A DNA stretch of 64,000 nucleotides from Marsupella aquatica (taxonomy: Eukaryota; Plantae; Marchantiophyta), in assembly GCA_973895155.1 (NCBI GenBank), contig OZ316892.1:21019619-21083618 (forward strand), given 5' to 3'. Under the pieces are notes generated by a model. The model was given only the letters and a program-made list of their open reading frames with translations. It made no database searches and had not been told where the DNA came from. This document shows, one piece after another, positions 8,777-37,600 of this stretch. Each line of letters begins with the position of its first letter. The stretch's first letter is position 1. Made by a program: the position numbers and the translations under genes.

Positions 8777-10981
8777 TCATGACGGCCAGTACTCCTCGTC
8801 CTCATCGTCATCCTCATCTTCAGAACTCATGTCAAGATCATCATATTGCTCGTCATGCCCTCCTTTGGATTTCGACTGGACATTGCTGCGAACAGCAGCT
8901 CGTCTAGTGGCGATGAAGGACCTTTTACGCTTGGCAGACGCCGGAAGATGAACTTTGCCAACAGAACCACCATCACAAAATCCCCCAGCTTCATCACCCC
9001 ACTCCGATTCCGAATCATCCAAGCTTCCATCATAGCACAAACTAGGAGCTGACCCTCTTATGAGCTCCCTGTGCTTCTTTGGAAGAACTGAGCCTGTGCA
9101 AGAGGACAATAATGGTCGCCCACCCTGGTACGCAACAGCCAGCGGTCCCTGAGGTGATTCCGATCCTGCTTTAGGTACCATCGCAGCTCTTTTATCACCA
9201 ATGTAGGGAATCGATCCCATGGCTGGAGCGGAAACAGATGATATCTTTGCTGGCACCAAGCGACCCAAGGAAACGTAACCCTTGTAATCTTCATTGTTGA
9301 GCATGTTCTCCTCAGTTAAAATACCCTTGACATTTGTGGCAACTTCCACTGCTGGCTGGTTGTGAGCTTCTCTCCTGACTGCATCCTCTTCCTCAAACCT
9401 AAGAACTATCTGCTCCAAGTCCTGCAGTCCCTCTCTTACAACAACCGATCGACCTGCCCCACAATTGCATTCGCGTATTTCCTTGGCATGATTGAGACAC
9501 ATGGGTGTCGCGGAACAGCGGCAATTCACAAATGCAAGATAGCACATATGTTTGCACAGGACACACATTACACTGCCATCAAAGCCAGGTGATCTGCAAA
9601 TTATCTGTGCTCCTCGACGTTGAAGAAGCCACCTGACCTGGTGTTGGAACTTCACTAAACGCACGAATGCGACTTTTACGCTGTGTTGACGTCTCCTAGC
9701 GTTATCACTGATATTTGTTGCCTCCTGTCTCCCTTTGGAGGAGACCGATGCAGAGGATGCACCAACACTAATTGCTTCCTTACAAAGTAGCTCCTCATGA
9801 GGTAGGAGAGGAATCCGCTTCAGCAGCTCATAGCGAGCACAAGCAGCAGCTCCAAATGGAAACCAGTCCCCCATGGTGAAGTTAACAGCCTCGCTACAAT
9901 TGAAACCATGACTGAATCCTGCGTGATAGGCGCGAGGAAAGGTTATGATGAATTCACCAGGCGATTGAATAGCCCGATAGCTAGGAACCCCGTGCTCAAT
10001 TAAAAGCTCGGGAGAAAACATGGTTGTCTTGCCAATTAGCAGATCGTAGGCCAGACCTTCGTGTCCAGCAGTCAAGAGCTCTTTATCATATACATAGTCC
10101 TGGACGACTTGCTCAAAATGGGGAGCTGATTGCCCAGGAACTCCATACCATGTCTTCGGAGCACCACTGTGATGATAGTTGATACTAAATAGGTAATGAT
10201 CTTCAACATGCCAAGCAAACATAGCAAATGCCATTCCTATATATAACATGGGTTCCGTGACTCCCGGGATTGCAGTTTCTAAAAGCCGCAACGTGGAATC
10301 GGCAAGATGTGAGAAGTTATTCAGGTTCCATTTGCTCATCCCTAGGATGTCAGTGGGGGATGACGAGAATGCACTCCCTTCGATGTCAGAACCATACTCA
10401 ACATTGATCTTCCCATTATTGAGTTCCTTCCAGAATTCTGCTTCCATAAACTTTGGTGGAAGACATGCTGTGCTGCCGAATCTGCGAGAATAGAACTTGT
10501 TTGCCATCTTCTCATATTCATGAAAGGTATACTGCTGTCCACTTATCAAAAACTTGTGCATATCTGAAGAATCCCAATTGGAAAGCCGCATAGGCTGTAC
10601 TCGAGGTGTGAACCTGAAACCTGATTTCTCTCTAGTAAGGACACATCCAGCAGGGACGGAAGCAACGGAAGGCGAGACAACCTTACAGATACCATACTTT
10701 GAAGCCTCAGGCGATATTTTTTGAATATAGTCTATTGGGTCCTCGAATTCCTTTCTCGTGGGATAATAAACCGGACATGCAGGAAGCTTGTCAGCCCAGC
10801 TCATATCGATGACATTGTGCACTGCCTCCACCTGTGCTTGAACATTTGATCTTTCTGCCTGCATTCGCCTTCGTTGCATTACTAGCTTCACCCTTAAGTT
10901 GTCTGCCTTTAATTGAGATTCTGGAGAAGCACCTTGTCGTAACGCCCAGTATGTCAAACCGTCTCCTCCACTTCTCGCCAT
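8777..10981 (-). CDS. JmjN-JmjC-C5HC2 zinc-finger histone lysine demethylase (plant KDM4/JHDM3 group, JMJ706/JMJ13-like); single coding exon
   Basis: Uninterrupted ORF; first ATG at 10981 (the track starts at an upstream GTG, 11020). JmjN: CPVYYPTRKEFEDPIDYIQKI..GICKVV. JmjC Fe-binding residues: WHVEDH...AYHAGF. C5HC2 finger: CVLCKHMCYLAFVNCRC...CLNH...CNC. Acidic C-terminal tail. Confidence 0.93.
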   Translation of the reverse strand: MARSGGDGLTYWALRQGASPESQLKADNLRVKLVMQRRRMQAERSNVQAQVEAVHNVIDMSWADKLPACPVYYPTRKEFEDPIDYIQKISPEASKYGICKVVSPSVASVPAGCVLTREKSGFRFTPRVQPMRLSNWDSSDMHKFLISGQQYTFHEYEKMANKFYSRRFGSTACLPPKFMEAEFWKELNNGKINVEYGSDIEGSAFSSSPTDILGMSKWNLNNFSHLADSTLRLLETAIPGVTEPMLYIGMAFAMFAWHVEDHYLFSINYHHSGAPKTWYGVPGQSAPHFEQVVQDYVYDKELLTAGHEGLAYDLLIGKTTMFSPELLIEHGVPSYRAIQSPGEFIITFPRAYHAGFSHGFNCSEAVNFTMGDWFPFGAAACARYELLKRIPLLPHEELLCKEAISVGASSASVSSKGRQEATNISDNARRRQHSVKVAFVRLVKFQHQVRWLLQRRGAQIICRSPGFDGSVMCVLCKHMCYLAFVNCRCSATPMCLNHAKEIRECNCGAGRSVVVREGLQDLEQIVLRFEEEDAVRREAHNQPAVEVATNVKGILTEENMLNNEDYKGYVSLGRLVPAKISSVSAPAMGSIPYIGDKRAAMVPKAGSESPQGPLAVAYQGGRPLLSSCTGSVLPKKHRELIRGSAPSLCYDGSLDDSESEWGDEAGGFCDGGSVGKVHLPASAKRKRSFIATRRAAVRSNVQSKSKGGHDEQYDDLDMSSEDEDDDEDEEYWPS

Positions 10982-11300
10982 TTTTCCTCCTTGAGATTCG
11001 TGTGCACCAAGTAAAGGCACGCCTCGGAGCTGAACTCCAGTCAGACCACCCCAACACCCTCTAAAGAGTTTAAATGATCATGTGATGTCTTGTCTTCGTG
11101 CCCTCCAAAACAAAATGGTCAAGATTCGACTCTTCCTTTTAACGGTAATAACATCGGATATAATTCACTGATCTGAAACTGAAAGAACAGTTTATTCGAA
11201 CCAACTACTTGCACACTAGATCATCGACATTGCAGATGATAAATGTGCTGTATTCCAACTCGATCAAACACCCAAATCATCACTTTACCAAGATGAGCCC

Positions 11301-12058: not shown

Positions 12059-14442
12059 CTGTGGCGGATATGCTTCTTAGACGCCTTGGTACGTCAGTGT
12101 CGCTTCCGCCGTGGTGAAAATCCAGCTCTACCGTCCACGTTCTTCCTCTGCACCTTCGCTCTTATCATACGAATCGACGGGAAATCACTCGGTGTGAGCA
12201 TATCGTAGCATTCTTTTTAATCAAACTTTGGCGTCTTCCTGCTGTCACGCGATTGTCGGGGATGCAATAAAATACGACATCGATGGTGCTCTCATATCCT
12301 CCTCCTGGTTCTTTCTTCTTCCGACTGTCGTAACAGCCCTCGCGCTGAGTCTCCTTGTCGTACATGAATCATGTTTTTCTTTCTTACCCCTGGCTGACAC
12401 GAAATCGACGAGAATTAGCACTGAAATTCGTGAAAGTCTCCCACACGCGTCTCCATCTAATCCAATTATCAAAAATCTCTTCTAGTGGTTAGCAATTGAG
12501 GAAGAACATGGCATAAGGTGCTCCACTAAAACTCTGGTAAACTCCTGCTTCCTTCCTCTTCGTTCCTCTACCTTCCTTTCCCCTCAATCCCTGATACCGT
12601 ACTCTTGTTCACCTGTAAGGCTAAGGGTGTCCTCATGCTTGAGTCTTATTCCCTCTGATTAGGATTGAACCCGGACAAGCGTAAGCTCTTGTAAATGCAT
12701 GCAGCGCGCTTGTTCTCATCACGCACTCTCCCCAAGATTAGTCGTATGTCCAGTCAATCGAGTCCATAAGTTTCATCCGTCTATCTGTCAGTATTCGACT
12801 TTGACAAGCGCATGTACGATATCGTTAATGTGCTTCGGAAAATGGACCGGCCTTGCCACGAGGCTCTCTACAACATCGCCTGCGCTCAGCCAATTTCAAG
12901 TCCTGAAAAGCTACGGAATGGATTTGATCAACCTGGCGAACTTTGCCGGTGACAAGAAGTTCTGTGTAGGAAATCCACTTTAGCGCTTCACTAAAATCAG
13001 GGCGGACGGGTACACTACAGAACAAAATGTATGGTAGAAAAGACAGCGGAAGAAACGTCAGAAAACTTAGATCCTTCAATCGACAACAAGCTTGGAAAAA
13101 GTAACCAAACCTGGTTCAGGCAAGAAAGCACCAACTCGCCGCTCAACGCTCAACGCTCCCTATAGCACATCCTCTTCACTAGCTCGATAATCTTTTCGAT
13201 CTCGTTCTGACCTCGGAAAACGACTACTAATCGATATGTCGCATAATCACCATGGAAGCTGGCATCGTACATTCCTAACCTGTTGAATTTTCTCGGAGAC
13301 GAAGAGATTTAGGGTGGCATATCGTTTTTGCTAACGAGCAGAAATCATGGAATACAGTGGTAGGAAAAGTGGCTGCCGACTTGAAAGATGCAAGCTGCCG
13401 AGAAGGGAATGCACGGAGTAGAGACAAATCACGTCCGCAGGGATCTGGCCGACATCACAGCCACAGTAGACCACATTGCCCCGCCCTCCCCTGTGTCAAG
13501 AGGCTCTCATCTAATCTAATCTAACTAAAAATAACAGGCCAACTGGAGATTGTGGCAGCCACAATTGGAGACAAGAAAAAGGAAGGATTGAACGCCAATA
13601 AAGTTTTCACCAGACAAAAGGCTGCCGACCTCTCCTCCCTCTCTCTCGCTCCCCGGCTGGATCAGGACAAACCATCGCAACCGCTACTACTCGACGACCA
13701 TTAACCGCTGCCAGGAGGGCGGGCGGACGGACGGATGGTTATTAGTTGAACGAGCAGAAACCATTTTTGGAGAATCGTGCGTCTGGTCCCATCCCATCAC
13801 CTCTCCCAAGCCGGCCCCCTTTTCTTGTCGCAGTGCTTCTTGTCCATTCTCTATACGGTTCTCGTCGATGCAAACAAAGGAGTTGCAAGACCCTCCTCCT
13901 AGAATTCATTCAACCCGCGGATTATCAGGGCCGACATTATTATTCCGACAACGTCCCTCTCTGCATCCATTATTCCTCCTCCGTGCATCCGGTTCTCATT
14001 TACTCCTTCCATCCTTCCATTTCTTCCTTTCCTTCTTTCTCCCTCGTCTCGTCTCGTACTCTCTCGACTCGACGCGACTCTCGAGCTCTCTCTCTAGCTC
14101 GCCAAGCCCAAGCCCAAGCTCGCTCGCTCGCTCGCTCGTCGCGAGGCAACGCGTTGAAGGCGCGTTCTCGAGAGCATGGAAGGAAGCAAAAGAGGACGGG
14201 CGAGCTGGCACCGGGCGCATTTCTTGGTCCACGTTCATCACCTCTCTCGTGTGCAGTCAAAGCCATGCTTTCCATGCACCAGTAAAACAACTGCCACTGC
14301 TCCACTCCCTTCGTCCCTCTCTTCATTCCCTCCCCCTCTCCCAGGCTCCCAAGCCCCCACGAAAACGCCACCACACCCTCTGCCCTACTCGACCTCTCAC
14401 CCCCCCCTCTCGCGAAGCACATACGGCACCAGCCGCAGTCGC

Positions 14443-14740
14443 ACCGTGGTCAAGGTCCGAGGCTCCACGCCCTTCCCGGTTGGAGGCTCTTTCCTTTACC
14501 GCAGTCACTCACTTTGACCCTGGTCAAGGTCCGGGGCTCCACGCCCTTCCCGGTTCGGCGCTCTTTCCTTCACCGCTGTCACTCACTTTGACCGTGGTCA
14601 ATGTCTGGGGCACCACGCCCTTCCCGGTTCGGTGCTGTTTCCTTTACCGCAGTCACTCTCTTTGACCGTGGTCAAGGTCGGAGCTCGGTCCTTTACCGCA
14701 GTCACTCACTTTGACCATGCTTAAGCTACGGGGCTCCAGA
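14443..14740. repeat. 74-bp tandem repeat (3 full copies plus partial copies) carrying the palindrome TTGACC-nn-GGTCAA
   Basis: ggtcaa recurs at 14448, 14522, 14596 and 14670 (period 74). A degenerate copy lies near 14945-14980. Confidence 0.85.
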
Positions 14741-16329
14741 CCATTTAGTCGTGAAAAGTAGTTAGATTCCACCTTTCCAAGTCACTTTCTACTAAAATTA
14801 GCTAGTTACTCTCAGTCCCATTATCCAGAATTTAACGGTAATGCTTAAATTTAGGAGATCTAAAAGGAAAAAATTAGTTTCAGCATCTTTTATTCACAAG
14901 AAAAACCTTAAATATTACACTCCTCCAGACCCTTCCAGTTCCGGCCCTCTTCGCAGTCACACATTTGACCCTGCTCAAACTACTTTACCTCCAGGGGTAA
15001 TCTCTTATCCCGAGACCGACAGTAACAAGCGTCAGATGCTGTCAAAACATTATTATAAACTCTAGATATATTATTAGTTCAGTTTATTATTGTGACCAGA
15101 TAGTTTCGGTCGGTCATGATCTGGTATAATATAAGTATAGTATTTTCGTTGGGATTCTCGGAAAGCAAAAGGTACTGGTACACGGTAACTTTTACTGTCT
15201 GGTACACCGTTAATAACAGAAACCGAAACTACCAATATGGTATTTGGACAGCTTCATTGATGATCCTTGCTCTGGGTGCAGGGTATCGAACTGCCGTGGA
15301 GCACAGTACGACGTCCACGGTAAGCGTCCACCAAGCCCGCTCCAGAAAGTTTAATTATTTGTTTATTTGCCTTTTCATATTTACTTCCCTCGACAACTGC
15401 ATTTATGCTTTATACTAGAGTGTTCGGCTGGAAGCTAGAAGAGAACAGGATCTCCTGTTTTGTAAGAATCCAACTTTTCATATGATCTTCCAGAAATTCA
15501 TTTTTTTACTAGGATGGCAAGAATTCGTCTCCTTTAAATAAGAATTCAAATTTTCATAGGATCTTTCAGATACTCATTTTGACTAGAATGGCATCGATAA
15601 TACTCATAGTCGTACATAACGTAAGAGCGTGTTGCGATCCAGTGTTCTCTCTCTACCGGTGTGTATGGACTGTAGTTTCTTTGACTTTCTATTTGTCCAT
15701 GTTGTCCACTGTTTCATGTACGAGTTGGTGCCTTGGTATGTGGTTATTGTGTTGTTGTTTTCGTCTTCAATTGAGTTTTTGTGGCCCTCTTGATTTGGCC
15801 CAATACTACTGCTCGTATTTTTTTAAACTCATCCAAGTGTGTGGTCCAACTACACAGCCCTCTCACTCTGGCCTGGTTTTCCTTTTGTCGCAGAAGACAA
15901 AAATGTAAATAACTCATAAGTTGCTTGGTCGATTTGAACTCACTGAACCCATTGTAGAGCCAAAGATACCCTTCTCCACACCTCTACCAAAAGAAGCCAG
16001 TGACGACCAAAACAGGGGGATGAGATTGTCTCTTTATACACCAAACTGCACAGGTTGGAAACTGCCAGAAAAGGGTCAGCCCAAAGATGACTAGCAAGGC
16101 CCACACAAGGAGACGGAGCCAAAACCCAACGAGATAGCAAAAGTAACAAGGTATTGCATTTTGTGAGCATTAGCAGACCAAAAAGAAACACTTTGATTGC
16201 TTAATTAGAAAAAACAATATTCCTTTACCCAATATCTACAGTAGCACAAAGGTATACGCAAGTTGCAACCATCACGATCATCTGCACCTTTGCATGATAT
16301 TTCCTTAATTGTCACTCAATTAGTTCAGG

Positions 16330-16507
16330 TGTCGTGACATATAGTATCGTAGCCATAGTGTATCGAAAACATACAAGTCACCAGCAATGCATATGTGCAA
16401 GCTGCTAGCAACCAACATGCATGTAGAAAAAGTCCAATCACATTCACAAGTGCCAAGAAAAAGCAACTGAGGTGGTATGTACGTAGTGGAGGTGTAAACC
16501 TCTATAT
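16330..16507 (-). repeat. Split repeat A (178 bp), terminal copy
   Basis: Direct repeat of 16870-17047 (offset 540); about 5 mismatches, all transitions. Confidence 0.92.
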
Positions 16508-16867
16508 ATAAAAGGCGTAAGAGAAACAATTGTACTGAAATCGAATCAAAAACCGGTAGGATGCCAAGATCGGCCGGGGGCATCTAACGAATCACTGTGT
16601 GAATCCCGTGTACGGAACCGACGAGCACTGTCTGAGCTCTGTCAACAGCGATTCAAGAAGAACTGAAAAACCAACAAAGAGAAACACACCCTAAGTAGAT
16701 CAAGTCAAGGCGTCACACTAACAAGCACGTTTTGCTTCAAGACCGGCCTAGACTTGCTACAAGAACATGACACTAACTCAAGTAGTACACTAGCCCTAAC
16801 TACATACCTAGCGGGCATGCGAGGGACATGCCGATGTGCACAAGCGGCACTGTCCCTCGGCATGACA
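16508..16867 (-). repeat. Split repeat B (360 bp), internal copy
   Basis: Direct repeat of 25937-26296 with about 9 mismatches; ends in CATGACA. Confidence 0.93.
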
Positions 16868-16869
16868 GC

Positions 16870-17047
16870 TGTCGTGATATATAGTATCGTAGCCATAGTG
16901 TATCAAAAACATACAAGTCACCAACAATGCATATGTGCAAGCTGCTAGCAACCAACATGCATATAGAAAAAGTCCAATCACATTCACAAGTGCCAAGAAA
17001 AAGCAACTGAGGTGGTATGTACGTAGTGGAGGTGTAAACCTTTATAT
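16870..17047 (-). repeat. Split repeat A' (178 bp), internal copy abutting the PPT
   Basis: Starts TGTCGTGA two bases (gc) after the CATGACA end of B; matches 16330-16507. Confidence 0.92.
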
Positions 17048-17054
17048 CCCCCCC
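17048..17054 (-). other. Polypurine tract (plus-strand primer) candidate
   Basis: G7 run on the minus strand ~30 bp after the pol stop codon and immediately before A'. Confidence 0.7.
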
Positions 17055-17086
17055 AGACCACAGCCAAAAGGAGGGCTGAAGAAAAG

Positions 17087-17230
17087 TCAGGTAGCACAGG
17101 AAGGGCAAAACCATAACCCTTCTGGCACCTGGGTAAGTTCAGGCCGAAGGCAGAAATGATGGTACCCTCCATTGCAATTATCACACAGCAGCATCTGGTT
17201 AGCATCGTCAATTTGCAAACACACTTTGCA
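17087..17230 (-). CDS. C-terminal PHD finger (C4HC3) of the integrase
   Basis: CKVC-x8-LCDNC-x4-HHFC-x11-WFCPSC followed shortly by the stop codon. Confidence 0.9.
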   Translation of the reverse strand, partial: CKVCLQIDDANQMLLCDNCNGGYHHFCLRPELTQVPEGLWFCPSCAT

Positions 17231-17499
17231 AGGGTAGTCCACAGGTGGAATCCAGGTAGAAGTCACAATGGTGGGATCCAAGTTAGGCAGATGACAAGGA
17301 GCACAATTCTTGGCATTGTCAGCAATTGTGCGCCCATCTGCCCCTTGTAACTCTAGCACTCCAGACGGTCGAATAGCTTTAACCCTGAGAATAGTACAAC
17401 TGGTAGAGGTGTCCAGGGTGTCGTTAGCTTGCCGCTGCAAGTACACAAAATCTCCCACATCAAACTTCCTGACCTTGGGCTTAAAAGTGCCCCCTCGTG

Positions 17500-18420
17500 T
17501 GTGTGTGCATAACACAGTGTGTCCCTGTGTTGTGCAATGGCCAAATTCTCCATGGCCATGGGCATAACCCTCCTAAATAGGGCAGCCCTCTCAGAGATCA
17601 CATCAGACCAAGTCACAGCTGAATCCAAGTCCACCACCTGAAGCATGTGAGCAGCAATAGCAGAAGGTGGAACTGGGTGACGACCAAACAACAAGAAGTA
17701 GGGAGAAAAGTTAGACAGTGATGCATGTCTGGACATCCTATACCCCATGGCAATGTAGGGTAAGGCCAGGTCCCAATCCTCCTTGTTTTTGGTGAGGCAG
17801 ATCTTCCGGAGGCCCTTCTTGCATGTCTGAACCATGCGCTCTGCCAAGCCATCTGCCTGTGGGTGATCTCGTGATGTCCGGCGATGATCAATGAGGGCCT
17901 GATCAAGCAGCTCCTGGAACTCTCCTCTGAATTCTGATCCCTGGTCAGTGAGACATTCTGCACAAGCTCCAAAGCGGTTGAGAACTTGTTGAAGGAATGC
18001 CTGGCTGGTGCTACGGGAGGTCTTATCTGGCAATATCACAAGTTCTATCCACTTGGAGAAATGCTCTATCATGATCATGATGTAGAGATTACCCCGAGAT
18101 GTGAGGGGTAATTCTCCAGCCAAATCACATGACCAACGATAAAACATGCCCTGAATAGGGAGTGGATGAAGTGTGGGTTGCCGAGATATGAAAGAAGTCC
18201 TTACCCTATCACACTGTTCACACCGGGCAATAACATCTTGAACCTGGCCATGCATGCCTCTCCAATGATAATGAGGGACCAAGAGGCTGTAAGTCCTCTT
18301 AACGCCAAAATGACCAAGCTCATAATGTACCTTACAGATAAGGCCAACCCTCTCATGAATGGGTGGAACCACCACTTCCCTGTCTGGCAAGCAGTGCACG
18401 AGATGATCTCCCTTCCACAA
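17500..18420 (-). CDS. Integrase (H2C2 zinc finger + DDE core) portion of pol
   Basis: HYELGH...CEQC; catalytic DLAG / TDQGSEF / AERMVQT; SPYFLLFGRHP. Confidence 0.93.
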
Positions 18421-18438
18421 GTAACGCTTGGACCTTTG

Positions 18439-20145
18439 CTAAATTCGGTCTCTCTGGGTTGCAATAACATGTACGGGGTACTCCCCATGCTGCAAAAATC
18501 TCAGAGTGTCATTGTCCTCCCATATGTCCACCACAGGTTGGTCAACAACGTAGCATGGCAGCAAAGCAAGATAGGTAGATGCATGAAATGTGGGCAGGAT
18601 GGAAACCTGGTCAAAATCCTGCCATGCATCTAAGGAATCATCAGAGGCAATCAAAGGGCTACGGGACATAGTGTCAGCATTTTGATGTGTCACACCAGGC
18701 CTATGAATTACCTCAAAATCATACTCCTGGAATATGAGCGCCCAACGAGCAAGCTTGCCAGTAAGGTTGTCGTTGGTCATCAACCACTTCAAGGGTTGGT
18801 GGTCGATGTAGAGAACAAACCTGGTCCCATAGAGGTAGGGCCTGTAATGTATGACAACCCACACAACAGCAAGGCATTCACCCTCATACGAAGAATAATG
18901 ACTCTCTACCTGATTGTTGCTCCTGGATGCATAGGCAATGACGTACTCTTTACCTTCCTCATCATGCTGGCCTAGAATGGCACCAATCCCAAGGGCACTC
19001 CAATCTGTGTGTAGCACAAAGACCTTGCTGAAATCAGGTCTTCTCAACACCGGGTATTCTGAGAGCTTCTCCTTCAAAGTGGCAAATGTTGCCTCAGCAT
19101 CTGTACTCCATGTCCAAGTCACATTCTTTTTCAACAAAGCATACAATGGGTGTGCAATGGTGCTGAAATCTTTGATGTAAATCCGGTAGTAATTGCACAA
19201 CCCAATAAAACTCCTCAAAGTGTGAACATCGGTAGGAGTGGGCATTTCCAAGATGGATACCACCTTGGCCCAGTGAGCCATGGTTCCATTTGGAAGAATG
19301 CAGTGCCCAAGGTATACTACTGATCTGACAACAAATTCACACTTCTTGGGGTGTATCTTTAGGTTCACCTTCTTAAGCCTCATGAATAGCTCCTCGAGGT
19401 CAAGTAGATGCTGGTCAAATCCTTTGTTGTGGACCAACACATCATCAATGTAGCATTTCAGAAACTCAGCACCTTGAAGAACCTGGTCCATGACTCTTTG
19501 AAAGAATATGGGCGCATTCTTCAAGCCAAATGGCATCACCAACCACTCCCATAGTTGGTTACTACCATGGAAAGTTGTTTTCTTGCGGTCCTTTGCAAGC
19601 AACAAAATCTGGTTAAAGCCTTGCCTTAGATCCACATGAGTGAAGATGTCTGAGTCTCCAATGCTGTCAAATAGCTCCTCTGGCTGTGGCATGGGGTACC
19701 TATCCTGGGGTGTGACCAGGTTCAATGGCCTGTAGTCCCCACACATGCGCTTCTCTGTCCACAATCCACTGGAATCCTTCTTTGCTGGCATCACTGTAGC
19801 TGCTGCAAAATCTGATGTAGATGGCTGAATAAGACCAGCTTCATATAACTCTTGGCACCTCTCATCCACCAGCTGCCACTCATGCTTACTCAAACGATGT
19901 CTCCGCCTGAAGATAGGTGTTTCCTCAGCCAACTCAATGGAGAACTGCATGGTCTTGCACTTACCCAAGTCCTTCATAGAGAAAGCAAACACGTTCTCAT
20001 GCTTGAGGAGCAAATTCAGCAGCTGGTCCTTCTGTCTTTTACTCAGGTGGTTGCCCATGATGAACATGTAGTTGGCAACACTAGGAATAGGACCTGATGT
20101 ACTCGTGCTTGAAGAGCCAGAAGTGCTAGCCTCCCCACTGTCCAA
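18439..20145 (-). CDS. Reverse transcriptase + RNase H portion of pol
   Basis: RT: CGDYRPLN, DLRQGFNQI, MPFGLKNAP, YIDD, KKCEF, YLGH. RNase H: TDWS, SSYEGECLA, DHQPL, NADTMSR. Confidence 0.95.
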   Translation of the reverse strand: MDSGEASTSGSSSTSTSGPIPSVANYMFIMGNHLSKRQKDQLLNLLLKHENVFAFSMKDLGKCKTMQFSIELAEETPIFRRRHRLSKHEWQLVDERCQELYEAGLIQPSTSDFAAATVMPAKKDSSGLWTEKRMCGDYRPLNLVTPQDRYPMPQPEELFDSIGDSDIFTHVDLRQGFNQILLLAKDRKKTTFHGSNQLWEWLVMPFGLKNAPIFFQRVMDQVLQGAEFLKCYIDDVLVHNKGFDQHLLDLEELFMRLKKVNLKIHPKKCEFVVRSVVYLGHCILPNGTMAHWAKVVSILEMPTPTDVHTLRSFIGLCNYYRIYIKDFSTIAHPLYALLKKNVTWTWSTDAEATFATLKEKLSEYPVLRRPDFSKVFVLHTDWSALGIGAILGQHDEEGKEYVIAYASRSNNQVESHYSSYEGECLAVVWVVIHYRPYLYGTRFVLYIDHQPLKWLMTNDNLTGKLARWALIFQEYDFEVIHRPGVTHQNADTMSRSPLIASDDSLDAWQDFDQVSILPTFHASTYLALLPCYVVDQPVVDIWEDNDTLRFLQHGEYPVHVIATQRDRI

Positions 20146-20399
20146 GTTGCTAGCATGCTACTGATAAGGTGATGAGGCCTCTCCAAGGCCTGTTGTATCT
20201 GTTGCTCTGGTCTGATCCACACCATGAAACTCAGAAATAATATCAGCCACGTTACAAGGGACCTCCTCCCCCCCAACACTTGGACTGAAGCGGTGAGTGT
20301 TGAATAGAGGTAAGTGCACTTGGTCTGGATGCCATGGAGCAGCACCATGGAGTGGTAGGGCTGGAACTCCTGATGCTGGATGAATGTACATCTAAAAAA

Positions 20400-21355
20400 G
20401 GATGCAGGTGACCAGAAGCCAAGTGAGAGCATTAAGATCCATTACCCTGCCAAGTAAAGCATTCCTGGCCAACTTGGTGATTTTGGTGTGGCATGTAGTA
20501 CCGGGTTGGAAGCCCATAGCCCGTTCTCTCTCCTCAGGAATAGGTTCATCCCATGTACCGGTAGAATGTCGGTAAACCAGGCCAGGACCATCACCCTGAA
20601 AAGCATGTGCACCTGGAAAGGACACAAATGTAGGCCAAGCAGCACGGGGCTGTCCAATGGTATTGGCTGGATACCAAGGTGCTGGCTCTTGCCGTGTAGC
20701 TAGTTGGCAAGAACTGTCAGGATCCAAAATCTGGTCCACTGTGAGGTTAGTGTCCCTGGATGTGTGGTGAAGAGCTAACTCCAACAAGGAAGGTGGTGCA
20801 AGGTTAGTCCAAAAGTTACGAAGACAATGTGCATAAGAACCACAGTGCACTGCATCAATGAGAAGGGGTGGTCCCAAGTAGTGCTGGACCACACTAAAAT
20901 CCTCTTTGACCTGTGGTCGCTGGTCAAACTGAGATGGAGTATTCTCAATGATATAACCAACAGCAGGATAATGGGATTGAGCCCAGGTGAGAATCTGAAC
21001 CAATGTTGTGAAAAGGCCAGAACGAGAATCATGCAGTCCAGCACCAGGACCAGCAGCTAAAAACCCTTTGGCATTCCCAACCAGCTATGATCAAATCAAG
21101 GGAGCCAAGAAGGGTTAAGTGCCGGTGCTGGACAAGCTGGATATCTGGAGGAAAGAAAGAAAATGTAGACTTCCATGCACTGTGTGGAAACTGCTGAGGA
21201 AATCGCTCTGAAAATTCCAGCAGACGGGATTCAGCCACTTGCCTTGCACCTGGATCAATATCCACATAGATGTACTACTTCACCACCATGCCAGATTGTA
21301 GGAGAGCTTCCAGACCTGTAGAAATGCCACCAAAAAGCTCAAGCAATGTAAGGCC
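20400..21355 (-). CDS. C5 cytosine DNA methyltransferase domain, DNMT3-like (one stop, one frameshift)
   Basis: Motifs in canonical order: I LLELFGGI; II YVDID; IV LDLIIAGWECQ(GF); VI GYIIENT; VIII YAHCLRNFWTNL; IX ERERAMGF; X RNALLG. Confidence 0.88.
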
Positions 21356-21689
21356 ATCCGGAGCAGGAGTCCATGTAACTGGTGCGCTCAAGATTGGGGC
21401 TATTGGCTGTCCATTGTGCTGCCCAAGGTCTTCAAACTTGCGCAATGCAGCCACCAAAGGTCCATGGGCTGCTTGGAGCCGTTGTACCACCTCTGGTTGA
21501 TGATCCATGTTGCTGGAAAGTGTTGCTATACGTGCAGCAGCATGTGCAGCAGCCACCTCATCGTCATCCTCCTCAATCCAATCTTGCAATGGGTGGTTGA
21601 CATAGGTAGCTGTGTGCACTGCTTTCAACACACAGTGGTGAGCCATAGGTGTATGGGCACCATGCAAATCAAGTGGAATGTAGCCCAAG

Positions 21690-22060
21690 TGTGAGCCATC
21701 AGTATGCCAATCAACTCTGTAGTATGCATGCTCATGCCAGTTGTCAATGGTAAAACCTGGTGGGAACAAAGCCTCCTGGCCAATGAGCACATCATACGTA
21801 GTGGCATTGGTAACCAAACATCTGACTGGGAAATGTAGTTCCTGATCTATACCGCCATTAAAAGTGAGAGTGAGTAAAGTAGAACTCTCACCCAGCACAT
21901 CCTCCACAGTGCCACTAGCAGTCCGAATGTGCCACTTGGATTGCTGTAAATGATCAGTCAACAGTCCCATCTTCTTGGCAAACCGAATGCCCAATATCAC
22001 TGGTTGAGCACCTGTGTCTAGCATGACCACCTGAGGAGTGTGACCCTCCAACTTGACCAC
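21690..22060 (-). CDS. Retropepsin-like aspartic protease domain (boundaries approximate)
   Basis: VMLDTGAQPV active site and downstream YDVLIG motif. Confidence 0.85.
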
Positions 22061-23158
22061 TGAATTCCTGTTGTCAACAATGGCAATGGTGGTGGAAACT
22101 GAAGTCCTGTCACTAGGCACCACTCTTGGCAAATGATGAGGTACCTTGTGAAGGGAGTTAGTGTCCACGGTCTTTCCACTCAACAACATAGCCAGGAAAG
22201 ATGGAGCAGCATGACCAGAATCAAGTGTAGCTCTGGTCACACAATCAGTAGCAATCGGTACTGGGGCAGCCAAACCAGTGCAAACATGTAAAGGAGAAGA
22301 AGAAGGTCCAGTATGTACATGAGATTGGACCTCCAAAACCGGTGTCACATGGGCTGATGAAGAATGTAGTGAACCCTCTAGCGCCCTGAGGACAGCTCTA
22401 GCATCTAGCTGTAAATCATGGCAACTGAAAAGTGGAGTTGTAAGAATCTTTTGTGCCATACCGGAGGTGAAATGCTCAAGCAGCTCAGGAGAAACAACTC
22501 CCTGTGAAATGTCAGCAGCACCTGGTGGTGGAATGGATGTAGTTGCAGCTCCCTCCCCCCTCGCCAACAAGGTGCGCTCTTCAGCAAGTGTGAGGGGCTG
22601 AAAAGATTGGGGCAAGACAGCCCGAGCTTCCTTGGCTCTAGTCATAGGACCAGCAGCAAGACCATCAGCCTGTACAATGCGGCGCATGGGAGCAATACGG
22701 GAGGCAGCACTGGCCTGCTGGTAAGAAAAATAGGAAGGGCATAATGAATCTGAAAGTTCTGCTGTAAGGCCAGACTATGGAGCAGAGGATAGCACACACT
22801 CACCCATATGAGCATCAAATGGTAAGCCATAGAAAGAGCAGGGTAGAGGTGCTGAACTGTCAGTGGTGCCTGGGCCAGGGATGGGTTGCACATGACCAGC
22901 CGGTTGAGAAGGACCAGCAAAGGCAGTTGACTTGCCTTTGATGTTGGCAAGTTGGGCACGTAGGGACTCAACCTCATTAGTTAGAGATTGGAGTTGAGTT
23001 GCCTGTGCGTTGTGAGCCTCCTTCTGAGCTGGTTGCTTCTGATGCTGCTTGGGCGGTTTGTTGGCACTGGATGCTTTGCCACTGGAAGGAGGAGCAGTTG
23101 ATGCAGTAGGAGCCCTCCTAGCTAGTGGGGGAGTGGAAGCAAGAGCAGGAGGAGGGGC

Positions 23159-24364
23159 CTACTGTCGTAGCTGCTTCCTCTCTAGGAATTTGGCAAAAGA
23201 AACTGCCTCCAAGTAACCCACTTTCCCGCAAAAATCACAAGACAGGTCCTCAACAACAATATCACACTCATTAGCCTTGTGATTGGGGTTACCACAGTAG
23301 TTGCAAGATGGCAGCATGAAAGCAGCATGTGCTGGCTTGGTCTTGGAACCATACTGTGGCACACGAGAAGGAGTGGCCAGTGTAGGGGCAGCAGCCTGGT
23401 ACCTGGATCGCGGTGGACGTGCAATACTGGCCTCATAATGTGCATGGGCCAACTCAAGTTTCTCAGCAGTGTCATAGACATTGAGCAATGTGTAGCTGTC
23501 TCCAAACTTTGAGAATACTTGCTGCAACACTTGCGAATGGAGAGCTGGTGTGCCCTCCAATGCACGAAGATAGCGATGAGCAGCCTCCAAGTCAGTGATG
23601 CTCTGGGTATCCTTGTTCAACTTGAGAAGCCGGCGATACATCATCTTCAAGGTTTCATCGCGCTGCCTCACAAAGGTGGCCAACTGCATGATTTTCTCAG
23701 CACTCTTGATTGAGAATTCCAATTCAAGAACCTGGAAAAACTCAGCCACTGGATCAGCAAAGGCAGGAGAATCAATGGTGGGAGAAATGCCTGATGTAGC
23801 CTCTGCCAAGACAGTGGGAGTAACTGGCGCAGTGGTAGGAACTGGAGTAGGAGGGGAAGTGGCAGGAGCAGCAGCATGGGCTGCAATGGCATTCTGTAAG
23901 GCCAATTGTGAGGCTGCCGCAATTGCACTGGCATAGGTAGGGTTAGGCAACTGTGTGACAGCAAGCAGCCATTGAGAATGTTTCTCATACACATCCAAAG
24001 CCTCATGGTGCACATACCTGGCTAGCTGCTTAAATGCAAAAGCATTTATGAAATTGCTGCCATACTTAAACTCCAATTCGTATACGATAGTGTAGAAAGT
24101 GGATTTGAACTCACGCAAAGAAACAGTGCCTGGCCACCCGCTGAAGCGCTCAATGCGGCCAGATGAGTGGCTGGCATCCATGCTGTATGTCGGTGAAGCT
24201 GGAACAACCACTGATGCAGAAGGGGTAAATGGCAATGAAGTGATAGCAGGCTTCGGAGTAGTGGTAAAGCGACCGCCAAATTGAGCAGGATTGCGTGGTG
24301 TGGGTGCTGCTGCTGTCTGTGGCCGTCTTTGAAATTGCCAAGACTCCAATGAAATTGGTACCAA
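23159..24364 (-). CDS. Gag portion with CCHC zinc knuckle(s)
   Basis: CNYCGNPNHKANEC fits CX2CX4HX4C; degenerate second knuckle CDFCGKVGY. Position is 5' of the protease. Confidence 0.8.
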   Translation of the reverse strand: MVPISLESWQFQRRPQTAAAPTPRNPAQFGGRFTTTPKPAITSLPFTPSASVVVPASPTYSMDASHSSGRIERFSGWPGTVSLREFKSTFYTIVYELEFKYGSNFINAFAFKQLARYVHHEALDVYEKHSQWLLAVTQLPNPTYASAIAAASQLALQNAIAAHAAAPATSPPTPVPTTAPVTPTVLAEATSGISPTIDSPAFADPVAEFFQVLELEFSIKSAEKIMQLATFVRQRDETLKMMYRRLLKLNKDTQSITDLEAAHRYLRALEGTPALHSQVLQQVFSKFGDSYTLLNVYDTAEKLELAHAHYEASIARPPRSRYQAAAPTLATPSRVPQYGSKTKPAHAAFMLPSCNYCGNPNHKANECDIVVEDLSCDFCGKVGYLEAVSFAKFLERKQLRQ

Positions 24365-25766
24365 TGGTCGTGGATCACTCCGTAAATGGTACCTGGGTGT
24401 TGGTGGCGATGAGTTGCTACCTCCTGGCTTGTCGGCTGAGATGCTGCATGCTCACCCGGGGTGCCAATGGGAAAGAAATTGACAAGAAAAAGGAGTGGCA
24501 GCCCCAAGGCTAGGAAATGAAACCCACGAAGGAGGCAAACGGTGCAAGGCAGCAAGGCAGCAATGTGTCGAATGTGTAAACGCACAGAAAAGCCCCTTAA
24601 AAACTCCGGAAAGGCCTACTGCTGGCGGCAATAAAGAAATCCGGGAAAAGAAAATAGAAGTGGCCCCCCTTTAAGTGTATACATTGGGCCCCTCTGTGGA
24701 CCCAAAAACTGGCAGGAAAAGGGAAACCAAGAGGCGCGCGTCAGCGGGAAAAGAAAACCGGGCCAAGTGGGACACAGTATCGGGGCACGGTGCTCTATGG
24801 AGGTCGTCGATGGCAAGGTAAGAGCAAACGGAAAGAAACGGGCCCTACAAAATGTGAAAGGGGCCCCCTAAAGTGTATACACATCAGCCCGATGTGGTCC
24901 TGAGAGATGGAAACAGGTCGATCGTCGCGCGGCAAAAAAGCGAGACAAGCCAAAAAAGGCGAAAAGAAAACGGGAAGAGTGAGGCGAAGAAAAGGAAATG
25001 AGCCCTGCATAGGGCTTCGCACCCCCTCCCCCCCTCCTTATGAGCTCCCGAAGCCTCCTTGGGGCTTCGTGCCCTGGCAGGCCTAAGTACTCCCGTGTGA
25101 GGGAGTTCGAATTGAACTCCCCTCTCCTCCTTTAATGCAGCTTGGGCCTTGTGCCCTCTCCTGGCACTCTCGCTCCCCCTCCCGGCCTCCTTTTATTGCA
25201 GCATAGGGCCTCGTGCCCACTCCTTGCACTCCTGCTCCCCTCCTCTTGGCTTTAATGCTGCTGAAGGGCTTCGTGCCCTGCAAGAGGACTCCCGAAAGGA
25301 GTCTATGTTTACTCCCCCCCTCTTCAATGCTGACAGCGGGCTCCGTGCCCTGTAGAAGGACTCCCGAAGGGGGTCGACGTTAACTCCCCCTCCTCGCGCT
25401 TAATTAAATGCTGGCAACGGGCGCGGGAGGAAGAAAAACGCCGAAGGGAGGGTGTGCGGCCCTATGCGCGACCCAGGGGCAATGATGAGCCCCGCATGTG
25501 TATACACAGGCAGGACTGGGAGGCACCTCACGACGGTAGCTGCGAGGGGAGGCAAAATGAAACAACGGCCGGTGAGAGAAAAGAAAGAACGGGACCCCAA
25601 AGGGTCGTGAAAACATAAGGCGAAGGGAAGGTGGTCGCACTGTGACCGGAAAACACCGAATATGGCCCGAAAAAGGTCGTGGCAGTCAGCAACCGGCAGC
25701 CATAGTCGAAAGCAGCAAAGGGTCCCCAGATGCAACCGGAAAGCAAAAGTCGGGCTCCAACGGGAG

Positions 25767-25803
25767 TGTTATGTGTATACTTATGTTAAGTATACACATA
25801 ACA
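25767..25803. other. Perfect 17-bp-arm hairpin in the retroelement 5' leader
   Basis: tgttatgtgtatactta-tgt-taagtatacacataaca. Confidence 0.9.
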
Positions 25804-25923
25804 TCATATTGAACCCATAATTTCAACTCGTCCCTCCGATGTCCGTCGAATAAATTGCAATGGCTTCACCAGAAATTGTCATAATTGTCACGAACAATCT
25901 TCTTCCCCTCACCACTATCTCAG

Positions 25924-25938
25924 CAGTTCTTCTTGAAT
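25924..25938 (-). other. Self-priming primer-binding site candidate
   Basis: cagttcttcttgaat abuts B' and is the exact reverse complement of 26080-26094 (attcaagaagaactg) inside B'. No TGG-initiated tRNA-type PBS is present at this position. Confidence 0.7.
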
Positions 25939-26296
25939 AAAAGGCGTAAGAGTAACAATTGTACTGAAATCGAATCGAAAACCGGCAGAATGCCAAGATC
26001 GGCCGGGAGCATCTAACGAATCACTGTGTGAATCCCGTGTACGGAACCAACGAGCACTGTCTGAGCTCTGTCAACAGCGATTCAAGAAGAACTGAAAAAC
26101 CAACAAAGAGAAACACACCCTAAGTAGATCAAGTCAAGGCGTCACACTAACAAGCACATTTTGCTTCAAGACTGGCCCAGACTTGCTACAAGAACATGAC
26201 ACTAACTCAAGTAGTACACTAGCCCTAACTACATACCTAGCGGGCATGCGAGGGACATGCCGATGTGCACAAGCGGCACTGTCCCTCGGCATGACA
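25937..26296 (-). repeat. Split repeat B' (360 bp), 5'-terminal copy
   Basis: Matches 16508-16867; begins TGTCATGCC on the minus strand; followed on the + strand by the TSD CAGG. Confidence 0.93.
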
Positions 26297-29200
26297 CAGG
26301 GAGTAACTTTGTGGTCCGAATGTGGTTTACCATTGGGATAGGATTTTGGTCTGTCTTGGGCCTTGGGTTTATAGTATTTGAGCTTGTGTATATCTTGGCA
26401 TGACTCCTTTTATGCTTAAAAGTATTTTATATAGAATGGATTTCTGTTTGAATTATTTTCTTTGGGATCCTGTCTCCCAGTATGGCACCCTTTAATATTC
26501 TTTATAATCTTATATATTTTCGATGGAAGTACAGTGTGGCACCCTTTATTCTTTACAATCTTTCATATATTCGATGGATTCCGGAGTCAAACTTTGACTA
26601 CTTGGTAGCTAGAGATCTCCTTCGTATGCTGTAGTTACGAACTAGGCTATCTCCACCTAAACATCTCCTCGGTACGGGTCACCTTTTCCAATCCAAAACA
26701 AATATAAAAAGGTACAAAATCACCATCCTACTATCCTGATAGGATCCCAAGATAGAAAAATTTTGTCCTCTAGTGTTCCCCACTCAAACAGATTCTCTGT
26801 TTGGATGAATCTAGTTTATACTCATATGTGATATGTAGTGTAAGGTAAGATTGATTGGGGCAGGTAAGGTAAGGTGAGCTAAGCTAGGATTGTAATGCTG
26901 CAAGTGTTCCTGCTCCAATGAGATTTTATTTGGTGAGTTCTTATCATAGGATTAAAAATGAGAAGATCCTGTGACGGACTTGTGTGCAAAGGTTGAGGCG
27001 AATGCAATGTGGGATAGGATGAAAATGATGAACATGCTGAATATGCATTGGCCATAAGTTGATGGACACAGGCAATTTTGTGGTGTGCATAATTATGAAA
27101 CCTAGTTTTGTTGACAAAATTGCAAATTCCTTATGTATTTTCCTGGGTACAGGGGCTAAAACCATCTCTGGAAAATATGAACCTAAGTGTAGATGCAACC
27201 ATGAAGATAAGGAGGTGCTAGAATTATTTGCATTTCATATTCTTCTCCTTGAGATGGCTCGTAGTAGCTTGCAAATAAGTGTTAGTCAATAACCAAACAA
27301 GACAAAGTAACTTGAGTAGTCTACCCAACAAGGGAATGTAGAGACAAAGATGAGAGGAGCTTGTACTAGTAACAGTTTTGGGTAGTGCTTGAGGCATTCA
27401 TACGCTTGGCCTTTGTTCACAGTCAATGACTGCATAGGACAAAGAAAAGGGACGAAGCTGAGGGCAAATCGAATTATGAAGGCAATATTTGATTGTGAGT
27501 CTGGATGCCAACCAAAAGAAATACATGGACAAAGAGTGAGCTTGTGATCTATGATGCATCACAAGTCATACGGGGAATGGCTTTGCTTATGGGTTGTTGT
27601 CCTCATTATTGTTCAAGGAAGTGACGTATTGGTCCTGGGCCCAATAAACTGATAAACTCGATCCGGTAGCTCCAGGGGTAATCGGGAATAATCTTTATAA
27701 TATTTTGCATATCCGAAATGATTGTTATAATATTTTGCATATACTGAGCAAGAATTTAGATCAATCTTCTTGGTCTCGTGACCAAATAGATCTTTGGTCA
27801 TGGAACGGAATTTAGGGTACATACATCTATACATGGCAGTTGCCGGATTTGCCACATCATAGCGCATTATTCCTTATCGGTAAAAGTAGGTGCCAGCAAA
27901 ACGCAAAGCTTTCCTTATTTGTAGTAGATAAGTTTGGATTTGTAGCTCGTCGGCTCTACAGAAAATGAAGATGCTCTGACTTTGTACGCCAACCGGGCCG
28001 GGTCAGACCTGTAACTACAGTCAATAAACATTTCGACCATGATTGTCCAGACTGTGACCAGGGTTATCTGCTTGTCGGTGTTTATATGGCAACACGACAG
28101 AGGAGAGATCCTCGGCTTCGCTGGTCAAACGCAAGGAGGTTCCATTTCCAAATGGGGCCCACCATGAGTGGGTGCACGTCATCGTTTACCCGCAGGAGAT
28201 CCTGATCGACGTTCAGTTGTCCCCCTCAGGGGCGCCAGATCTACTGGGGCCGTTCGATTTCAAGCCCTAGCGTACAAGCGACAGAGGATAATGTAAGGTG
28301 AGGTGAGGTGAGTCTACCAGCCACCTGACCGTCACTCCTTGATCGTGGTTCCTGGCTGAACTTACGGCGTACTCTGTCTAGTACCGGTACAGTGATTGAA
28401 TGCTTTTGAATGGAATAGTATTAAATACTAATATCACGAATTGGAACAACATGTATATGTAAATAATTTTTTAGACGAGAGTGCTTTCTACTGTACCTGT
28501 CACCATCCAGATAAGCAACAGGACGTATTGTGTGTGCCAATTGTCATTTAGCTAAAAAATCTGTGGACAAATATAGAGTATCTAAAGCTCTTTATTGCAC
28601 ATGCTTACACTATTTAGGCAATGATCGACATACTTACACTATTTGGGCAATGATCGAACCGGTAACAAGTTTTGATTATGCTATACTATGAATACACATT
28701 TCAGATTTTGTATCACTAGCAATATTACCAGTTCGTTCCTTGAAGGTAAAGAGAAATGAAGAAAAATAATCTTGCATAATAAAACTTAGATGCTAAAAGT
28801 TACTCTTTGCCCATACTTTTTTTGTCCACCTTCATGTCAGTTTTGTCTTTATTTGAAATCAATATCATTTTTGCCCATCCTCATTTAAAGTTTTTTATTG
28901 AGACTCATGATTACTTTTGTTTGTATTGAGGGATATTAATATGCATTTTTATTTCAATGTGCCATAACAAAGTGTATGATTTGTAATATTTAGATTTTGA
29001 ATCAAGCTTGGGACCCTTTAAAAAAAATTATTGTCCTAGAGTATATTGTTCGCATCCCACTTAATTTAATCCTTGCCTTCCTAGAAGTCTACTTTCCTAC
29101 TAGTTTTAGATTCAATAGTTTGAATCTAATCTCTTTCGGTCACTTTCACTAGAAAGAACCTCGATCTGTCGTAGTGAGGGAGAGGAATAATTATGGCCAA

Positions 29201-35699: not shown

Positions 35700-37600
35700 A
35701 CATACTATTAGATTTGCAATGCAGCTTCCAATATACAAGCACAAAAGGAGAGCACTCCAAAACTAGCCCAGGGAAAGCGAGCTGCTGAGCTAAGATTGAC
35801 ATCAAGAGAGAGCAACATTGACTCTGGATCGGGCTCTAGGTGGGTCCATAGATCACCATATATAGAGCATTGCATGAGAGGAGAGAGCAAAGCATCAACT
35901 ATCTGGGTCTATGGAGATGGGTATGTAGCATGCACAGAGAAGCGACCAGCCCAACTGTCAATGCTTAGAAAAATCTGCAAAATAAGTTATCATTGAGAGT
36001 GTGCAACTGAGGCAATACAAGCGAAGGGAGAGCAAACTAAGACAACATCGATTCCCCGATCGAGTCTGGGTCCATTGCAGCTTCCGGGTCAATGAAAATA
36101 AGACACCGTAAGACAGCCAGTCAAGTGCCCCTTCTTTGTATGTGACCCAAAATTGTCCCAATTCAGAGAATCTTGAACATTAACACACTAGGTCCCCATT
36201 CTCATTATGAAAGAGGAACTCAACATTGAGATACTAGTCCTTGTGATCATGGTCCCTCCCTCCCCACTCTGACCACATCAGCCAGAGTTGATTTGAGAGT
36301 GGTGGGCAAAGAATGTTTCATCCCTTGCTGCTGAGTAAGCAAGAGATATATCCTCTCCCAACACAATATATTTGGACCCAGTCCACCCATGGACAACAGA
36401 TGTGGACCAACCTTGAACAACACTTCTCTTAGCTGAGGTCAGTTGTTTTTCAATGAGGCAACAGTCCACTGCTTCCACAGTAGTTCTCTTGGGAGGAATC
36501 ACTTTGACAACAACCGACGGTAAACCACAACACAATTGACAATATTGCATATTTGATTAACCATCATTCCTCCTCTTGTCGTTGGAGTAGTTGCTCGCTG
36601 CTACATTATGCCAATTGATGCTCAAGCTCTACAACACCATATGCAGTGAGGGTCACTACAAGGTGGGTGGCACTATAGTTAGCTTGTGAAAGATCCAGTC
36701 CAAACACCACTCACTACTCCACCACAACCAAGGGCTCAACAAGCAAACCTTCTCTCGTCAGCCGATCATTGATCAACCACAAGCACCATAGAGGCACCAT
36801 AGAGGCAACAAAGAACACCCTAAGGAGCATAGCCGAGGACCGGAGCAGAGAGCACAACATACCACGATCCCGACCATGATAGGAGCACGAGAAGCTCAAC
36901 ACTAAGTTGGGAGCAAAAACATTGACTCAAAGCAAAGCAAATCAGATCTACAACATTGAGCACTGGAGAGCACATCATCAATCTACAACATCGGGCAGCA
37001 GCATGAGCGGAGAGGAGACAAGGCAGTAGCATGAGCAAATAGCATCAACAGGAGAGCATCAATAGAAGAGCCTCGACAAGAGAGCATCAACAGGAGAGCA
37101 TTGACACGAGAGCCTCAACAGGAGAGCATTGACAAGAGAGGCTTGACAGGAGAGCCTCGATAGGAGAGCATCAATAGGAGAGCATTGGGAGGAGAGCATC
37201 AACTACAACATTGGGCTGCAACAATAAGAGCGGAGAGCAACCAAGGAGTGAGAATAAAATAGGGAATGAAAGCAGATCATATCATATCACATTGAGCAAC
37301 AGCATGAGCAAAGAGCATCCAAGGAGCGAGAATGAAAACAGATTAGATCAATTCAGCTCAGTTCAATTCATTTGTGTCTACCATCGATCTACAACTTTGA
37401 GCAGCAGCATCAGCAAAGAGGACACAAAGGTAGTAGCATGAGCCAAGAGAATTGATTGCCACATCAAGCAACAACATGAGCAAAGAGCAGCCAAGGAGCA
37501 AATATGAGGACCAAAATGTGTGAGAGAGAAATGCGGACCAAAATGTGTGAGAGAGAGAATGAGCAGAGCTACAAAAAACTCAACGTAACTTGTGGATCCA
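35700..37600 (-). mobile_element. Highly decayed Ty1/Copia-like remnant
   Basis: Minus-strand IYGDLWTH (~35840-35865) resembles the Copia integrase HSDLWGP motif; the surrounding frames are fragmented. Boundaries are approximate. Confidence 0.35.
37041..37204. repeat. 14-bp minisatellite (about 11-12 copies)
   Basis: Variants of aggagagcatcaac repeated in tandem. Confidence 0.85.

Follow-up and report, generated by a model that had tools for sequence, protein, structure and literature searches.

What a retrotransposon gains from a cytosine methyltransferase of its own has been an open question since 2018; the known examples all come from algae that are hard to manipulate. Among these, the enzyme of the dinoflagellate element SymbioDIRS-Dnmt3 carries out de novo CG methylation in yeast, and the idea that such an element methylates its own cDNA is already present in the same paper (PMC5890265). 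A Gypsy-Dnmt3 domain has been put to a published test just once, with that of KnitGypsy-Dnmt3; no methylation was seen in yeast, a result that the authors call inconclusive (PMC5890265). A preprint treats 'streptophytes (Gypsy-DNMT3)' as a separate acquisition, land plants not being named in the text available (bioRxiv 10.64898/2026.05.21.726589), and a later paper from the group that described KnitGypsy-Dnmt3 also speaks of 'streptophytes' (PMC12344493).

The fusion of a methyltransferase (MTase) to a Gypsy element is a known kind of arrangement, which is extended here to land plants and chlorophytes. In a literature consisting mostly of papers outside the subscription journals, no land-plant MTase-Gypsy report was found, and the supplement of PMC5890265 may name other hosts; within the same limits, neither a PHD finger nor the anatomy of the ends was found described for MTase-bearing Gypsy elements. 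It is the reading of the ends that is the new part.

The element, its methyltransferase and its relatives

The window, which is the whole stretch of 64,000 nucleotides that was analysed, contains a whole Ty3/Gypsy retrotransposon on the minus strand at 16330..26296, with ends TGTC...GACA, delimited by self-alignment and by an empty-allele contig. Pfam searches on the flanking frames give the domain order gag-PR-MTase-RT-RH-IN-PHD along this strand. A long 5' leader (24182..25923), made up of degenerate ~70-bp repeats, varies between copies and has low contig depth. It is followed by gag (23162..24181), in which the CCHC knuckle is below the Pfam zf-CCHC cut-off (E=0.014) and residues C293, C296, and H301 are invariant across 19 rows; a fold search with gag returned PNMA2 and other capsids, the best at E=0.12, with no significant match. 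Next come an aspartyl protease (approximately 21700..22060; gag-asp_proteas E=7.4e-7), the DNMT3-like C5 cytosine MTase domain (20395..21352), a reverse transcriptase with YIDD and an RNase H (together approximately 18600..20060; RVT_1 E=3.2e-27, RT_RNaseH E=9e-36), and an integrase with an H2C2 zinc finger and DDE core (17500..18438; rve E=2.6e-13, Integrase_H2C2 E=3.1e-13). At the C-terminal end of pol is a PHD finger (17090..17260; Pfam PHD E=5.4e-12), which had been overlooked in the initial annotation. The best match of the family profile is Ty3 Gag-Pol (E=1.3e-64). A viral origin was considered and rejected, a scan of viral contigs yielding 15 loci, all at 24-33% identity and none belonging to the element's family by score. 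There were no Rfam matches over window positions 16000-27000 and no tRNA genes were found in the 64-kb window.

This copy of the element is dead. The initial annotation had counted one stop and one 1-bp shift, which holds for the MTase domain alone (stop at 21275-21277, frameshift at ~21070) and not for the length from gag to PHD, where there are six in-frame stops (23161, 22777, 21277, 20394, 20160, and 18441) and two frameshifts, at about 21070 and about 17500, and the first arginine of motif VIII has been lost. Nearly all of the sequence of other copies in four public runs lacks the stops at 18441, 20394, and 23161, and the depth over the MTase is similar to that over RT and several hundred times that of the flanks. 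In run X1 the figures are 0.7-1.1e5 for the MTase, 0.9-1.9e5 for RT, and 115-260 for the flanks, these being summed contig depths and not copy numbers. In run X4, a contig joins 16325 to 26297, and over window 15942-26742 the filled and empty alleles are both present at similar depth, about 32-35, and that sample is therefore polymorphic for the insertion. The element is one of many copies and is insertion-polymorphic in the runs that contain it.

Elsewhere in the window are a 766-aa uninterrupted frame with JmjN, JmjC, and C5HC2 domains (8780-11077), an F-box protein with a KIB1-4-type beta-propeller (59730-61130), a decayed LINE-like RT fragment (2-1559; RVT_1 E=0.002, below cut-off), and tandem arrays of ~74 bp (14412-14745) and ~14 bp (36999-37231). 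A sperm-tail PG-rich (SHIPPO) repeat gene at 54161-56674 on the minus strand is in keeping with a plant that has flagellated sperm.

C5-MTase motifs had been reported in order between the protease and RT, and they are present there, at ~21352-20395 on the minus strand: ELFGGISTG (I), YVDID (II), GWECQ (IV), IIENT (VI), AHxLRNFWTNL (VIII), ERERAMGF (IX), and ARNALLGR (X). Their order from I to X is canonical and non-permuted. With X placed at both breaks, the 334-aa domain matches human DNMT3A at E=2.9e-6, the alignment spanning motif I to VIII and then again IX-X, and matches M.HhaI at E about 0.5. When the family profile is compared with solved structures, DNMT3A is the best by sequence (1.7e-22). 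A model of a relative that is 64% identical (P0020; pLDDT 82.6) has DNMT3A/3B as its best Foldseek match (E=4.6e-15, TM 0.78 by target), with TM of 0.74-0.80 by target against DNMT3A/3B (PDB 6brr, 5yx2, 6u91). These comparisons agree with the likeness to DNMT3 first noted from the motifs and make DNMT3 the nearest solved relative in both sequence and fold. As for Pfam DNA_methylase, the scan of the repaired frame that had been suggested fails for the window copy, at 15.6 bits (E=0.011) against a cut-off of 22, but succeeds for 13 of the 22 relatives scanned. Across the 145 family representatives, the catalytic cysteine is found in 140 of the 141 that cover it, the motif VI glutamate in 144 of 145, and both motif VIII arginines in 142 of 144; motif IV, however, has EC in place of PC in 82 and PC in 48, which counts against the role in cDNA marking that is proposed below.

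The profile search, cut at E<=1e-30, returned 431 clusters formed at 50% identity. Named relatives are from Calypogeia fissa, Sphagnum compactum, S. magellanicum, S. fallax, Marchantia polymorpha (many gene models, including Mp4g09160, Mp8g17980, Mp6g11220, and Mp2g26090), Closterium, Mesostigma, Chromochloris, and Haematococcus; one was also found in Scenedesmus, and that in Tetraselmis is weak. No record from Klebsormidium nitens was among the relatives returned. The named relatives in Calypogeia, Marchantia, and Sphagnum support a range that includes land plants, as the initial annotation had supposed, and the presence of this family in the model liverwort M. polymorpha, in Sphagnum, and in Calypogeia, together with its many copies and polymorphic insertions in the runs that contain the window's element, makes the question of what the enzyme is for testable in a land plant.

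Intact frames were looked for in these relatives, and the MTase was found in unbroken ones from Calypogeia, Marchantia, and others. The C. fissa protein CAM6101866.1 (P0170; 1549 aa), which is 79% identical to the window domain over the domain's second half, runs gag-PR-MTase-RT without a break, and P0146 (2240 aa) runs MTase-RT-IN-PHD without a break. These frames show that the MTase is fused into the polyprotein and is an integral part of it throughout the family. In a subfamily with records of 1252-1376 aa (P0193-P0200), gag-PR-MTase breaks off about 100 residues past the MTase, which hints that a natural frame boundary may lead to expression of the MTase at the Gag level.

There are two domain orders. 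The MTase lies between PR and RT in the window copy and in 7 of the 145 representatives, and 65 have the commoner order RT-RH-MTase-IN-PHD (proteins P0008-P0016, P0210-P0235, and P0246-P0387, including those of Chromochloris, Haematococcus, and Scenedesmus); RT is missing in 73 records. The two orders separate in an RT tree (98 SH-aLRT; 39 chosen element rows) and in an MTase tree (99 SH-aLRT; 85 element rows with long branches, near-duplicates and rows of <230 covered residues dropped), both being quick searches with no outgroup. The MTase tree places the window copy and the Calypogeia rows as sisters (96 SH-aLRT). This placement and the plant-type neighbours in the window, among them the SHIPPO gene, make a liverwort or moss the probable host.

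For nucleotide comparisons, the best 80 of 403 confirmed relative loci were used, of which 67 are distinct and which represent one close subfamily. Among the 67, median pairwise dN/dS is 0.36 for the MTase, 0.36 for RT, 0.37 for RH, 0.42 for IN, 0.42 for gag, and 0.54 for PR, in a set that includes decayed copies, so that post-insertion decay inflates all values. Between the window copy and these loci pS is 0.74, with synonymous sites near saturation, and pN is 0.21. The MTase ratio is well away from the value near 1 that had been named as a refutation, and it supports purifying selection on the MTase equal to that on RT.

The window copy, which is broken and, taken alone, below the Pfam cut-off, might suggest that the MTase entered by nested insertion, was captured as a passenger, or results from a chimeric assembly. 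Against this are the unbroken polyproteins in several genomes, the identical spacing of the MTase in the 80 relative loci, the equality of its dN/dS with that of RT, the separation of both trees by domain order, and the size of the family, and we regard such an origin as refuted, its probability being negligible. The statement that the domain belongs to the polyprotein is upheld.

Terminal repeats and a possible route of integration

Two complete direct LTRs are absent from the ends of the element, which has instead the anatomy A-PBS-gag/pol-PPT-B-GC-A-B, all on the minus strand. The initial annotation had passed over this splitting of the repeats. Repeat A1 (25937..26296; 360 bp) is the left integration end and is likely to contain the promoter and transcript start. 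It differs at 9 of 360 positions from A2 (16508..16867), identified by self-alignment. Repeat B1 (16870..17047; 178 bp) differs at 5 of 178 positions from B2 (16330..16507), which is the right integration end. From the sequence, a primer-binding site (25924..25938) comes directly after A1 and a polypurine tract, G7 (17048..17054), directly before B1. The internal B|A junction is the palindrome ACA-GC-TGT (16865..16872), which is the predicted integrase attachment site, and the circle junction is predicted to be at 16508/16507, where A2 and B2 meet. The target-site duplication is 4 bp, CAGG on the plus strand, at 26297..26300 by the element's 5' end and 16326..16329 by its 3' end, and is in single copy in the empty allele. 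The TG...CA ends, the 4-bp duplication, the PBS after the 5' repeat, and the PPT before the 3' repeat are those of a Ty3/Gypsy element; overall, this is a Gypsy element by its proteins and not by its end structure.

A 15-nt perfect complement of the PBS lies at the predicted transcript 5' end (26080..26094, minus strand) and could act as a self-primer; the longest complement in 2000 shuffles was 12 nt. A complement of at least 12 of 15 nt is present in 19 of 25 relative records, and of the six below this, three reflect a register error from a 5-nt duplication and three are poor. The PBS and primer of the relatives, the latter 31-32 nt past a TATA box, differ in sequence from those of the window copy, which means that both halves have changed together. 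The pattern is the self-priming signature of the Tf1 type (PMC4600332, PMC6317226).

Counts of end structures come from the 80 relative loci, and thus from one close subfamily outside the branch with the MTase after RNase H. Of 14 rows, 13 have a G-rich tract ahead of B1, the exception (L086) being another repeat, and when the B|A junction was counted, its spacer was 2 nt in 17 of 17 records examined. The target duplication of relatives in the full form is an exact 4 bp in 5 of 8, matches at three of four positions in 2, and is absent in 1. Following the PHD finger, the 28 records with room have B-A-B (15), B-A (2), or B alone (11); B alone is found in 10 of 23 distinct records. L023, with the full A-B-A-B, and L045, with B only, have identical flanks, a pair that would seem to be the result of recombination between B copies or of assembly collapse, as would some of the B-only records; linear cDNA may have given rise to others, as dead-end insertions.

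The following route would account for these ends. Transcription would begin inside A1, and the first ~13-15 nt of the RNA would pair with the PBS after A1 and act as primer, as in Tf1. From the positions of the PBS and PPT, the LTR copied by RT should be B-GC-A, and the linear cDNA would have it at both ends; the integrated ends are nonetheless at the GC within B-GC-A. The two blunt cDNA ends would then be joined at an A|B junction, which is the weakest step, and integrase would cleave each strand of the left ACA-GC-TGT just past its CA, leaving two CA-3'OH ends that bear 2-nt 5' overhangs, such as are known from processed retroviral ends (PMC11054761). Insertion would follow, with the 4-bp duplication that is observed. 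The inserted form corresponds exactly to a two-LTR circle with an A|B junction, opened at the left ACA-GC-TGT, and the observed form, A-internal-B-GC-A-B, would leave one attachment site intact for a further round. In the particle, protease would free the MTase, which would methylate cDNA cytosines and so mark the new copy before it arrives, and the PHD finger is likely to steer the integrase to nucleosomes with unmethylated H3K4. Taken jointly, self-priming by the RNA 5' end, a two-LTR circle cut at the internal palindrome, and marking of the new cDNA by the MTase form an account that we consider fairly probable. If the end anatomy has been read rightly, a DDE integrase acts here on the internal palindrome of circular or end-joined cDNA, and we know of no LTR element in which this occurs.

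Integration through a circle junction has been disproved for retroviruses (PMC11054761). In addition, a symmetric two-LTR circle should also give A-B-A-internal-B, and the absence of this mirror form, with B directly before A1 in 0 of 36 relative records (31 distinct), counts against the circle, as do the many copies that have B alone at their end. For split-repeat tyrosine-recombinase elements, it has been proposed that the junction is templated by a read-through transcript. The A|B junction of the same element could similarly be copied from a transcript reading into B2, with no blunt end-joining and with an extra RT template switch rebuilding the second B. The missing mirror form would fit this, as would a repeat order that is the same as the A-coding-B-A-B of DIRS (PMC5890265) and the 2-nt loss at the A|B join that is shared by L029 and L091. 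In most copies the A|B join is precise, and a templated junction accounts for this equally well. A templated junction is, however, at odds with the ordinary LTR-type B-GC-A unit defined by the PBS and PPT, and minus-strand DNA primed from the PBS would arrive at A2 and leave B2 uncopied. In L048 most of B2 is gone, the loss being on the side of the junction, which also tells against a templated one; this deletion and those of L029 and L091 at the A|B join fit end-joining. We consider the templated junction the less likely of the two, but a real rival.

Possible roles of the methyltransferase and PHD finger

Under the route through a circle, the MTase most likely methylates the element's cDNA, a proposal taken from PMC5890265 and applied here by analogy. 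CpG depletion was considered as a mark of self-methylation and rejected, being no stronger in the element than in its flanks or in a host gene: CpG is 0.24 in the element's coding region and 0.27 in the host F-box gene, and in six relatives it is 0.15-0.36 in the flanks and 0.34-0.40 in the coding regions. Alternatively, the MTase might act at or after integration, with the insertion site or the promoter of the element as its target, or might serve as a module that binds DNA or marks attachment sites, and not act on free cDNA. The negative yeast test of KnitGypsy-Dnmt3 (PMC5890265) would be in agreement with this, as would the PHD finger on the same polyprotein, which is a chromatin reader, and the position of the MTase next to the integrase in 65 of the 72 representatives with RT. 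In the branch to which the window copy belongs, though, the MTase is far from the integrase, and its near-invariant catalytic residues argue against a purely binding function. The alternative as a whole appears less likely than marking of the cDNA.

The family profile matches the PHD fingers of Lid/KDM5, KMT2D, BAZ2B, ATXR5, and UHRF1. PHD fingers of the KDM5, BAZ2B, ATXR5, and UHRF1 type read unmodified H3 tails, and that of the element presumably has no aromatic cage for H3K4me3. To judge from this likeness, its ligand is likely to be unmodified H3K4.

A broader and more tentative suggestion, which we rate at somewhat less than an even chance, is that a Gypsy lineage found across the green plants, from chlorophytes to liverworts and mosses, has had its attachment site moved to the middle of the LTR, with a two-LTR circle opened at the palindrome, and that the DNMT3-like domain has been kept because it marks or protects the circular intermediate and possibly chooses which attachment site is cut. 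Such a choice by the MTase, if it is made, would account for the missing mirror form as well as for the recurrence of MTases in split-repeat retroelements.

Comparison with known systems

Plant DRM has permuted motifs, VI-X before I-V, and was rejected as a counterpart since the motif order of the element is I to X. The catalytic domain of host DNMT3A/3B has the same motif order, motifs VIII-X, and fold, but identity is about 20%, GW(E/P)CQ is found for GSPCN, and the element's domain is embedded in a polyprotein, in which no ADD or PWWP was found.

The A-coding-B-A-B repeats and an MTase in Pol are shared with SymbioDIRS-Dnmt3 and other DIRS/Ngaro elements (PMC5890265). Those elements integrate by a tyrosine recombinase, whereas this one has a DDE integrase, TG...CA ends, and a 4-bp duplication; membership of DIRS/Ngaro was rejected on the presence of the rve integrase and the lack of a recombinase in the nine element frames scanned. 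Troyka, with CG...CG ends, a 3-bp duplication, and a distribution given as animals only (PMC12440569), was rejected for its different ends, duplication, and host range.

With Tf1/Sushi and the plant Tcn1 chromoviruses, the element shares self-priming by the RNA 5' end, as a signature in its sequence, a chromatin reader ending the integrase, and presence in non-seed plants (PMC6317226, PMC4600332). It differs in its PHD finger in place of a chromodomain, its extra MTase, and its attachment site inside the LTR, and was not placed among the chromoviruses or Tcn1 because it is a PHD finger, not a chromodomain, that follows the integrase. An LTR finder that relies on paired LTRs, such as that of the REXdb survey, would miss elements with split ends, and this may account for the apparent absence of the lineage from that survey (PMC6317226). 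EpiLTRs/DAM-LTRs are likewise LTR elements with an MTase and a chromatin reader, but according to the preprint text their DNMT is sister to DNMT4 and their reader is a chromodomain (bioRxiv 10.64898/2026.05.21.726589).

The closest described element is KnitGypsy-Dnmt3 of Klebsormidium nitens (de Mendoza et al. 2018, PMC5890265). The text available gives neither a PHD finger, nor a PBS or PPT, nor a target duplication, and it describes no internal attachment site and no mechanism. It reports a non-permuted Dnmt3-like domain in a Gypsy Pol, purifying selection on this domain, and, already in a figure legend, a DIRS-like repeat order on Gypsy domains, all of which are shared with the element in the window. 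KnitGypsy-Dnmt3 is described from one alga, as acquired 'in the K. nitens lineage', whereas the present family is found in liverworts, peat mosses, Closterium, Mesostigma, and chlorophytes. Judged by the published description, the element resembles KnitGypsy-Dnmt3 in how it works and probably belongs with it.
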